A DNA stretch of 64,000 bases from Eledone cirrhosa (taxonomy: Eukaryota): assembly GCA_964016885.1 (NCBI GenBank), contig OZ024740.1:206646001-206710000 (forward strand). Reading direction: 5' to 3'. Shown here one piece after another: positions 15,307 through 39,717 of this stretch. A program made the translations under genes and the position numbers. The notes beneath the pieces were generated by a model, which was not told where the DNA came from, did no database searches, and worked only from the letters and a program-made list of their open reading frames with translations. How positions within the stretch are numbered: position 1 is the first letter of the stretch; every line of letters starts with the position of its first letter.

Positions 15307-15616
15307 AAGTATGTTTGCTTCTTAAGCTAATTCTTAAGTAGGAATTCTCATAATAAAGTATCACAGCTTGCTGTTATTGGCAGGAATCCAGCAGTTGGTG
15401 AGAAAACTGATTAAGAATATTGTTATAGAAACTGGTGGTTATTTAGTATAGCAGGGAACAGTTGGTGGCAGGATCTGTTTAAAATACATCAAATACCAGA
15501 ACTTACAAAAACCAAGTGCACAACAAACATTAAAAAAACTGGAAATATACACACCATCTGACACTTGGGTCCATTAGTAAAATCTACTCTAGTTTAGGAT
15601 ATATATATATATATAT

Positions 15617-15924
15617 ATTAATAAGGTAATGAATTCTTTTACAATGGAATCAGCTCGAATGAGGAAAAAATATCCCCTGAGCAGTGTATAAATTAATATG
15701 TAAGTGATGAAACACAGATACCAACACATCTGTATATATATTGCAAAAGAAAAATTTAGCCAGATTGAAGTTTCAATCTGGCTAAATTTTTCTTTTGCAA
15801 TATATATACAGATGTGTTGGTATCTGTGTTTCATCACTTACATATTAATTTATACACTGCTCAGGGGATATTTTTTCCTCATTCGAGCCGATTCCATTGT
15901 AAAAGAATTCATTACCTTATTAAT
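15617..15924. repeat. Near-perfect palindrome with 153-bp arms, a 2-nt centre and one mismatch
   Basis: 15617-15769 is the reverse complement of 15772-15924 except cagctcg vs cgagccg. Confidence 0.97.
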
Positions 15925-16077
15925 TTTAACTGCTCCTAGTTTGAGCTGCAAACCGTCCCATATATACGACTGTTATTTCTAGCAGTACGGTTATGAGACT
16001 AGTTAGATACTGTAAAGCCATGTGCGCCACGCAGTCTTTTAAATTATTTAGAAGTGAAGCATATCAATTTGTCTCTG

Positions 16078-16205
16078 GATGTTTACTGAGGAGAGCGGGA
16101 CATGATATTCCTACACTTTTTTAACTCGAAACATATTTGTATCTTAAAGTCTAAACTTATCTACGGAACAGGTTTGATTTTGAAATTTAAATGTGTCTAA
16201 ACATC
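16078..16205 (+). ncRNA. Type I hammerhead ribozyme
   Basis: Stem I GATGTTTA(16078-85)/TAAACATC(16198-205). Core CTGAGGA(16086-92). Stem II GAG(16093-95)/CTC(16125-27). GAAA(16128-31). Stem III ACATATTT/AAATGTGT, extended by aaagtc/gatttt and aaactt/aggttt. Cleavage triplet GTC(16195-97). Confidence 0.85.
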
Positions 16206-16789
16206 ACCGCCTTTTGGCAATACAGTTCGTCTCCGTTGATTTATTATTTTAAATCGATATGGACAAACTGTAGTATAGTATACTTCAATCTGGCTAAATT
16301 TTTCTTTTGCAATATATATACAGATGTGTTGGTATCTGTGTTTCATCACTTACATATTAATTTATATATATATAGACTTTGTTGTAAAGACTTTACTAAA
16401 AAAACCAAGTAGCTGATGTAAGGAAAACTGAGCCCGTTAACACTTGTTAACCACCTCTCCAGGAACAAACCACTGTTGGAGAGAGAGTAATGGAAGTAAT
16501 AGTATGTTATAATATATGGTGTAGGTGTTCAATTGGCAAAATGACCACCCCCAAATATAACAACAGTATGTTATAATGTTTTGGGTAATATCTATGGAGA
16601 TGTTTCCATCAGCCATTATATAATTTCTCCTCACCCTTCTCCCTAATATTTTTATAGTGTAAGTCACATATCTGGGAGTGTTACTACTAAAAACACAAAC
16701 CTTATGGCCCATAACCCAAATAAGACCATTCAGGTGACAGTCAAAAGATCCCCTCACCAATGTACAACCACTGGACCACATACACACAA

Positions 16790-21065: not shown

Positions 21066-21782
21066 GCTGCCAACTCGTTTTCGAGTACGGCCACTACTTT
21101 ATATCCATGTAGGAGAACCCCTACCGATGCGCTGAACGAGTGTGACTTTTTAGTCCAGCCAGCGACTTGAAAACTCTGGTACAAACACTACACTTGTGAC
21201 GATTATTGACACACAGTGCTGGGCACATGGTACCATGTGACGACAAGTGCAGAGAGATCTCCAGATATAAAGCAATGCCTGTGCCGTGAAGCTTTTATAG
21301 TGAGCAAAGGCACTGCACAAAGCCAGTCCCACTCTCTTAACGAGGATATTTACCAAAAAGAAGAACAAGTCAACATCATTGGATACCATCAGGGTTGCAG
21401 GTGTTATATCAGAGTTTTCCTTCTCCTAGAATTCTGCCTTGACAAAGGCTAAGGGGTCATCTCTCCCAGTGATTTTGGATGGCCATTGACTCTTAAGAGC
21501 TCCTTTGCTCTTTGACAGGTTTTGTTTTTAGTCCTGCAGGATGTCCTAATTCACCTAGTGCGTGTGCGTGTGTGCACACATACATACATACATACATACG
21601 CACTAGGTGAATTACTGGTGGTGGTACCAAAACAAGCACTCGATGCACAGACACAGTGAATATATTAATAAGAAAAAGGAACTTTCGTTTACATGAATTT
21701 AGATTTTTATTGTGTATCGACCTGTTACGTAGGTGCATGTAAACGAAACTTTATCGTTCTTAAATATATATATATATATATA

Positions 21783-21864
21783 TATATATTGGTAAACGGA
21801 ATAGAAAATGCTGACAAATTGTTCACAATTTGTCAGCATTTTCTATTCCGTTTACCAATATATA
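21783..21864. repeat. Perfect hairpin with 40-bp arms, embedded in (TA)n
   Basis: tatatattggtaaacggaatagaaaatgctgacaaattgt-tc-acaatttgtcagcattttctattccgtttaccaatatata. Confidence 0.95.
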
Positions 21865-21893
21865 ATAACTTGTGTGTTACACCTCTATTCTTT

Positions 21894-21932
<39 letters not shown>

Positions 21933-27559: not shown

Positions 27560-28430
27560 ACCCCCAAAGAGGATCAAACTTTGACAATTGGAACCTGGAA
27601 CATCGCAACCCTTAGGTAAAGAGCAGGAATTATTGGAGGAGGCTAGATGCTATTGGCTAGATATAGTCGGGATTTCCTCAACAAAGTTCCATGGCTCTGG
27701 TACTGTAGATTTGGATGGAGGATGGAAACACCACTATTCAGGTGTGGTGCCAAAAATGACTGCTCAGGCAGGAGTGGGGATACTAACCAGACCCTGGAGG
27801 GAGGATTTGCCTCTTGAAGCTTAGACTGGAAGATAGGTTTCTATGGGTGGTACAAGTTTATGCACTAAACAAGGAATTTAAATACAGGTCCTTCCTTGAT
27901 GAAGTCTGCAGCATTAGATGTAGTTAAGACAGTCATATATCCAGATGAGACTTCAATGCACATGATGACACCGACTACCTGACATGGAAAGGAGTGATTG
28001 GAAGGAATGGCTACCCCAATCTAAATATGAATGGAGAGACCTTACTAGACTTCTGTTCTAGCAATGAACTCTCTATTATGAACATCTTCTTCCAGCACAG
28101 AGATATCCATAAATACACATGGTATAAGCGGAATCAAGGACAGAGATCAATAATTGATTTTGTTATTGTTTCTGATCTCTTTGATTCTGTACTGGATGTT
28201 CATGTTAAGAGACGGACTGAACTGTCAACTGATCTCCATCTAGTTATCTGCAACTTAAAACTATCTAAAGGCAAAGAAGCCCACAAAACTGGCAGGTCCA
28301 GGGTGACCTACAAGATAAAGTGAGAAGTGTTGGTGGATAAGGAAGTCAGGACAAGGTATGTGGATACTATTGCATTCAAAATTCAGAGAACTCAACTGAG
28401 GAAGTTGAGACAGAGTGGAGATTGTTGTTC
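27560..28430 (+). mobile_element. RTE-clade LINE APE-endonuclease region, frameshifted pseudogene
   Basis: TLTIGTWNI..., LDIVGISSTK.HGSG, AGVGIL, NLNMNGETLLDFC...LSIMNIFFQH...KYTW, RSIIDFVIV and STDLHLV are APE motifs. Stops and frameshifts present. Confidence 0.88.

Positions 28431-38102: not shown

Positions 38103-39717
<1,615 letters not shown>

Follow-up and report, generated by a model that had tools for sequence, protein, structure and literature searches.

A non-coding, hammerhead-bearing repeat unit in a (TA)n tract of Eledone cirrhosa with the insertion geometry of Penelope-like elements

Within a 64 kb stretch of Eledone cirrhosa DNA (the window; 64,000 nucleotides of contig OZ024740.1), a 750-base insertion at 15617–16366 lies inside a TA repeat and is probably a young copy of a high-copy, non-coding, hammerhead-bearing monomer of ~512–519 nt, for which a Penelope-like element (PLE) with an endonuclease probably supplied the machinery in trans. 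An inverted head, one full unit and a partial repeat of the unit start follow one another between two microsatellites, the arrangement which the initial annotation had described, except that its 155-bp inversion proved to be 153-nt arms around a 2-nt centre. The features of the insertion and its target are as follows.

15599–15618, unstranded: left target microsatellite, (AT)10, the final 2 bases of which are common to the inverted arm
15617–15769, minus strand: inverted head, mirroring unit positions 1–153 and stopping within the second TATTAATTT copy
15770–15771, unstranded: 2-nt centre, GT, equal to the junction palindrome minus its central 4 nt
15772–16283, plus strand: non-coding monomer of 512 nt (~519 nt in other copies)
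15772–15854, plus strand: upstream copy of the 83-nt terminal repeat, pseudo-LTR-like
15801–15808: TATATATA, within the upstream 83-nt repeat
~15807–15830: predicted 9-bp hairpin, within the upstream 83-nt repeat
15834–15838: TCACT, within the upstream 83-nt repeat
15843–15851, plus strand: first TATTAATTT copy, the tail repeat of which lies at the right end of the insertion
15918–15926, plus strand: second TATTAATTT copy, in which the inverted arm terminates, at 15924
16277–16284, unstranded: 8-nt junction palindrome, AGTATACT, spanning the unit-to-unit junction and coinciding with the fold-back point
16284–16366, plus strand: terminal repeat or tail, 83 nt, the final 4 bases of which are common to the TA target
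16363–16374, unstranded: right target microsatellite, (TA)6

The two arms (15617–15769 and 15772–15924, 153 nt each) carry a single mismatch, A at 15652 and C at 15889, and the tail is identical to the upstream repeat at 83/83 bases with a period of 512; the direct part is therefore 595 nt long including its 83-nt repeat of the unit start, in keeping with the earlier claim that the template was copied more than once around. CpG observed/expected ratios are 0.96 for the unit, 0.16 for the 5 kb on its left and 0.36 for the 5 kb on its right, with values of up to 0.7–0.8 elsewhere in the window; the single-base difference between the arms and the retention of CpGs in depleted surroundings had both been noted before and both stand, and the insertion is recent. 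Because the flanks overlap the element ends by 2 and 4 bases, a target duplication is unreadable. The two insertion ends differ by 70 nt, where the tail of PLEs is an optional 30–40 bp, and the usual end of the family is obscured by a masked zone (15591–15628) and by AATT library ends. Both outer ends lie in TATTAATTT copies, and the segments around these two copies align with a score of 37, which was matched by 53 of 2000 shuffles and is marginal. A promoter role for the 83-nt repeat can at most be suggested by analogy with Pen2a_Av. The window is rich in microsatellites and minisatellites and yielded no further copy of the element.

To place the insertion in a family, we compared it with four of the 13 listed public read runs, excluding X6–X8, which had a small share. 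Run X1 covers both flanks (281 and 228 nt, depths 4.82 and 3.7) with no differing letter, so it is probably from the same species and is perhaps the source of the contig. Element bins in X1 have depths of 1,265–65,793, that is 262 to 13,650 times flank depth, and a single contig reaches 1,028.6 (213 times); the tool warns that summed depths are not copy number, but the family is abundant and these depths are incompatible with one copy, which removes the single-copy objection that the initial annotation had raised against itself. Family depth is uneven, with a peak directly 3' of the hammerhead motif described below. Among the 18 of 158 loose ends listed, those behind 16276/16277 continue towards or into the unit start (five plus two contigs in X1, three in X4), so the head-to-tail junction occurs under two organism labels. 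One X4 contig leaves the unit at 16277, re-enters it at 15772 after 13 intervening letters and runs on to 16002, beyond both the 83-nt and the 153-nt limits, and the monomer is therefore ~519 nt there and the window copy 7 nt shorter, bearing in mind that repeat contigs can join different copies. The 512-nt period annotated at the outset thus holds for this locus, but the length is copy-specific, and X1 contains neither the exact centre of the window copy nor its 7-nt-shorter junction. At unit position 67 all three copies in the window carry the family minority letter, which implies one subfamily template. Another X1 contig (five differing letters, depth 11.4) likewise terminates at the tail end and TA.

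Copies with 96–97% identity were also seen at low depth in X4 and X5 (organisms B and C), with very high depth in organism A; those in B and C could reflect close relatives, horizontal transfer or contamination. Several candidate signals were set aside: the ends of read pile-ups in X11 were rejected as element ends, as 6/6 of those shown fall on AATT sites and are library cuts; the loose ends at 15836, 15714 and 15705, considered as a second TA-flanked end (unit position 65), were left uncounted because the same eight letters recur under two organism labels, which makes an element variant equally likely; and a 21-nt match in X5 was discounted as chance. A short, different repeat in the right flank (16486–16583) has raised depth in X1 and X11.

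The initial annotation had named hammerheads among the hallmarks of Penelope-like retrotransposition, and a type I motif is indeed present in the unit, composed as follows.

16081–16156, plus strand: type I hammerhead motif, within the unit
16081–16085 with 16152–16156: helix I, 5 bp, extendable with bulges to 16063–16178
16086–16092: hammerhead core CUGAGGA, intact
16093–16095 with 16125–16127: helix II, 3 bp, enclosing 29 nt with an inner helix at 16097–16100/16109–16112
16128–16131: hammerhead core GAAA, intact
Helix III: 2 bp with a loop of 16 nt
16151: predicted cut site, after GUC

The type I descriptor gave this one match in 64 kb on both strands and none in 5000 dinucleotide shuffles of the unit, whilst a looser search for the core and helix II gave two matches in the window. 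Rfam returned no match in the window at gathering score; its 42 E-value matches near the element were all below that score and none was a hammerhead, the strong ones among them being driven by the palindrome. Among the 40 of 115 substitutions listed for the family, none of the six in 16081–16156 hits the 29 core and stem positions (P ~0.05), and 16097 G>A and 16074 T>C maintain their base pairs. In folding predictions, however, the active hammerhead fold is not favoured: in the three contexts folded, the closing pairs of helix II and helix III have a probability of ~0, and helix I reaches 0.07–0.23 locally and 0 in the circle.

The family letter at 16151 is mostly T, giving GUU: it accounts for 20,564 of the 23,652 depth in X1, for 295 of the 368 reads in X11 and for all of X4. 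The window copy has the canonical GUC, where ~80–100% of family depth is GUU, and recent activity may belong to a small subfamily with GUC. GUU is cleaved more slowly than GUC. Given the GUU majority and an active fold that prediction does not favour, the ribozyme looks weak, although the NUH rule, as set out in PMC3138052, permits cleavage at GUU. With one hammerhead only, release of a monomer by double cleavage is impossible from this locus. As the motif is on the plus strand, the RNA strand is likely plus, the tail the 3' end and the inversion the 5' end.

The monomer was annotated as non-coding, and this was borne out: its longest stop-free frame is 81 aa, read across the junction (16191–16366), and the unit frames searched gave no Pfam match. 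The ATG opening this frame sits 40 nt past the predicted cleavage point; the 7 additional junction nucleotides of other copies would disrupt the frame, for which no relatives were found. All 11 of the 11 indels listed inside the monomer are of 1, 2 or 7 nt, none a multiple of three. Searches for protein relatives of two unit peptides found none, which is weak evidence given the very short queries, and neither a reverse transcriptase (RT) nor a GIY-YIG domain was matched in the element or among 79 window frames. The test for a tRNA-derived SINE was likewise negative, with no ARAGORN gene in the window, though decayed heads can escape it, and no tRNA family in the Rfam output. Pattern scans of viral contigs and metagenomes gave no matches, and a bacterial promoter scan was at chance level and irrelevant to the host. 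Elsewhere in the window, 27949–28320 gave a sub-threshold match to PF14529 (E 0.0012) and resembles part of a LINE apurinic endonuclease, and a 205-aa frame on the minus strand (38402–39016), for which no Pfam match was found, looks Helitron-like.

The element shares with non-LTR retrozymes a hammerhead motif, a non-coding unit, multiple copies and head-to-tail units. Retrozymes have been termed active where two consecutive hammerhead units occur (10.64898/2026.07.22.740005), and by the definition of Li et al. 2026 this locus, with 1.16 units and one hammerhead, is not active; because it lacks the two units, we class the element with non-autonomous PLEs of a retrozyme-like kind rather than with active retrozymes. 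From PLE-type insertions it has the partial tandem (pseudo-LTR), the head-to-head inverted 5' copy and the palindromic junction, together with an (AT)10 and (TA)6 target, a setting repeated in one further TA-ended contig. The PLE-type geometry proposed in the initial annotation agrees with that described in PMC3846280 and PMC8557442.

We infer the enzyme, the form of the template and the order of events as follows. The GIY-YIG endonuclease of a PLE would have nicked the (TA)n tract, and reverse transcription would have started internally, at unit position ~79–83, 215 nt downstream of the hammerhead cut site. The cDNA would then have run for 595 nt, scarless across the cut site and beyond its own start point, on a template that could be a multimer left uncleaved, a circle closed by ligation, or a linear RNA with a template jump. 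When the junction palindrome was traversed a second time, the cDNA may have snapped back at its end and primed the 153-nt mirror copy. At the second TATTAATTT motif this copy would then have been attached to the opposite target strand, the hairpin tip losing bases (four here, two in a read-derived contig). The mirrored arm contains bases from before the junction, and as the direct part also passes its own start, the template must have supplied more than one unit. Circle, multimer and jump would leave the same product, and sequence cannot separate them.

The evidence for a fold-back lies in the junction itself. The initial annotation had noticed that the centre GT (15770–15771) is the reverse complement of AC at 16282–16283 and had called this match weak; the match is real, and the judgement was too cautious, as 16277–16284 is a perfect 8-nt palindrome. 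It is one of four such centres among 528 positions and the only one of the four with G/C, the other three being pure A/T. Only one X1 contig was counted at 15771; with an extra AC its centre equals the palindrome minus 2 nt and is perfect, and its depth of 9.94 is about twice flank depth, as expected for a single mirrored locus; it may represent another locus or another allele. A near-identical centre is therefore present in a read-derived contig, which speaks against the earlier worry that the palindrome would be absent from reads, whereas the exact centre of the window, being absent from X1, is without independent confirmation. Inverted-junction palindromes of PLEs have been interpreted as self-priming (PMC3846280), and the cDNA hairpin at the junction is predicted to be weak here (−1.9 kcal/mol, z −0.67).

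Among the template forms that the preferred mechanism allows, a covalently closed circular RNA of ~512 nt, arising when hammerheads cleave multimers and the products are ligated, and serving as a rolling-circle template, is a possibility that we regard as a minority one. It would account for a cDNA longer than one unit and scarless across the cut site; the circular fold has a z of −3.4 against 60 shuffles and the plus strand is predicted to fold better than the minus strand (−116.9 vs −98.7), and such circles are described as proven for coral, mussel and axolotl retrozymes (PMC7229834). Against it stand the apparent weakness of the ribozyme, with its GUU majority and an active fold not favoured in prediction, and the lack of any two-hammerhead locus here. 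Moreover, uncleaved RNA was the dominant substrate in the one reconstituted system (PMC11167929), where the purified PLE protein cut both strands of AT-rich DNA at ATT and began copying inside the RNA, so that a circle is less needed, and only 1/9 Xenopus retrozyme dimers were reported as cleaved in vitro (10.64898/2026.07.22.740005).

Twin priming offers a different origin for the inverted head alone: both nicked strands would prime at the two TATTAATTT copies, and the two cDNAs would anneal at the self-complementary junction. We hold this to be rather doubtful. Both insertion ends do lie in the same repeated motif, and the anole PLE protein is reported to cut and extend both strands, with a predicted dimer (PMC11167929), but the TATTAATTT duplication is only marginally significant (53/2000) and AT-rich microhomology with the target accounts for the ends equally well. 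The arm mismatch bears on the same question. The site is polymorphic in the family and the family majority is the letter of the left arm, which the right arm lacks, as twin priming would allow; one mismatch also fits a later mutation. CpG decay in the left arm was considered as the cause of the mismatch and dropped, since with the left-arm letter as the family majority the right arm is no less likely to be the one that changed. By a modest margin, fold-back of the cDNA at the junction palindrome is favoured over twin priming.

We also considered, as an unlikely extension, that the insertion of a dispersed circular-RNA retrozyme is programmed by the monomer, with the junction palindrome halting rolling-circle reverse transcription shortly after one full turn and turning the cDNA back, and the repeated TATTAATTT motif fixing both ends. 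If so, programmed insertions would leave a promoter-bearing repeat before a full unit, able to seed copies, and a second palindromic stump in the window, likewise centred on 2 nt and loosely similar at its end, would point to a rule common to related families. This stump (21766–21930) consists of (TA)12, arms at 21783–21822 and 21825–21864, a centre TC, and then (TA)16. Its 40-nt arms are perfect, its direct part reaches ~21899, and together with the main element it is the only case in the window of arms ≥20 nt with a spacer ≤10. The direct part aligns loosely, end to end, with the 83-nt terminus, at a score reached by 28/3000 shuffles and by 20 of the 25,130 segments of the window, and a 9-bp hairpin is predicted in it at a position similar to that in the terminus. 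An imperfect inverted repeat (21660–21765, by eye) adjoins the stump on its left in a CpG-rich stretch.

A further alternative to trans-mobilisation of a non-coding family is that an abundant autonomous PLE is the parent and the monomer its end, gutted or truncated; the short period would then be a rare by-product, and most of the depth would come from 5'-truncated parental copies. This is improbable. In its favour, depth is uneven with its peak just 3' of the hammerhead, a loose end in X11 before 16179 (103 reads) is unlike the unit, and with 18 of 158 loose ends listed, a branch into an ORF could lie among the others. However, each monomer bin is at least 260 times flank depth, the junction leads into the unit start under two organism labels, frameshifting indels occur throughout, and the two unit peptides are without protein relatives (a weak point, given the short queries). 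Before 15957/15959, 16032 and 16236, the large loose ends can be matched by eye with the unit and are therefore diverged subfamilies.

It is very unlikely that the palindrome arose as a fold-back error in sequencing or assembly, or that a simple insertion later underwent inverted duplication at the DNA level. Although the exact centre of the window copy is absent from X1 and short inverted repeats are reported to drive palindromic duplications in DNA repair (PMC7999016), the arm stops exactly at the TA tract and is followed by unique flank, the arm difference falls on a family-polymorphic site, the X1 contig with twofold flank depth is mirrored at the same place, and 6 kb away there is another palindrome flanked by TA, also with a 2-nt centre.

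Mobilisation of the monomer by a PLE, our preferred reading, is largely in agreement with what has been described for animal retrozymes. PLEs were named as strong candidates for retrozyme mobilisation (PMC7229834), co-occurrence and pLTR homology were later added to the argument (10.64898/2026.07.22.740005), and as these sources present it, the case rests on shared hammerheads, co-occurrence and pLTR homology, with the mechanism left open by the authors. As in the animal non-LTR retrozymes of these two papers, the monomer here is non-coding, a few hundred nt long and under 50% GC, with one type I hammerhead per unit, a head-to-tail junction, high copy number and PLEs as the proposed mobilisers. 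Whereas those described are multi-unit arrays, the present insertion is dispersed, amounts to 1.16 units and has an inverted head in (TA)n; its hammerhead also differs, with 29 nt inserted in helix II, a loop 3 of 16 nt and, in most of the family, GUU. In length the monomer exceeds the 150–450 bp given in PMC7229834 but falls within the 51–972 bp of 10.64898/2026.07.22.740005.

The element also resembles endonuclease-bearing PLE insertions in architecture. Hallmarks given for PLEs are partial tandems, an inverted 5'-truncated copy, tails and a (TA)n bias (PMC8557442), and the accounts in PMC3846280, PMC8557442 and PMC11167929 share with our element the head-to-head inverted 5' copy, the junction palindrome, direct terminal repeats, unequal ends, an AT-rich or (TA)n target, a type I hammerhead upstream of the 3' end, and a TATA-like motif and TCACT in the repeat. 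Every architectural feature of the insertion is, in these accounts, already described for PLEs. Unlike those elements it has no ORF, its ends differ by 70 nt rather than 30–40, and the hammerhead lies outside the duplicated part in the window copy. Naiads have the (TA)n bias in common with it, but are described as without canonical hammerheads. Non-autonomous Chlamys elements such as MRC1 are, like our element, non-coding PLE parasites with pLTRs and head-to-tail insertions, but they are algal, and most Chlamys elements are without canonical hammerheads and prefer (CA)n or (C)n (PMC8557442). The hammerhead itself recalls the minimal motifs of PLE pLTRs in its conserved core, weak helix III and poor predicted activity as a monomer, yet its loop 3 is long and non-palindromic and it has no extra base between the core and helix II, so it fits neither the canonical nor the minimal description given in PMC4209133.

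The same combination was not reported in the literature titles and abstract openings searched, although subscription journals, supplements and Repbase may hold cases. By combining the complete insertion signature of PLEs with a non-coding monomer that bears a hammerhead, this case provides direct structural support, of modest value, for the mobilisation of such monomers by PLEs, and a short, young, high-copy family provides many independent insertions in which the origin of the inverted head and the tail can be probed.
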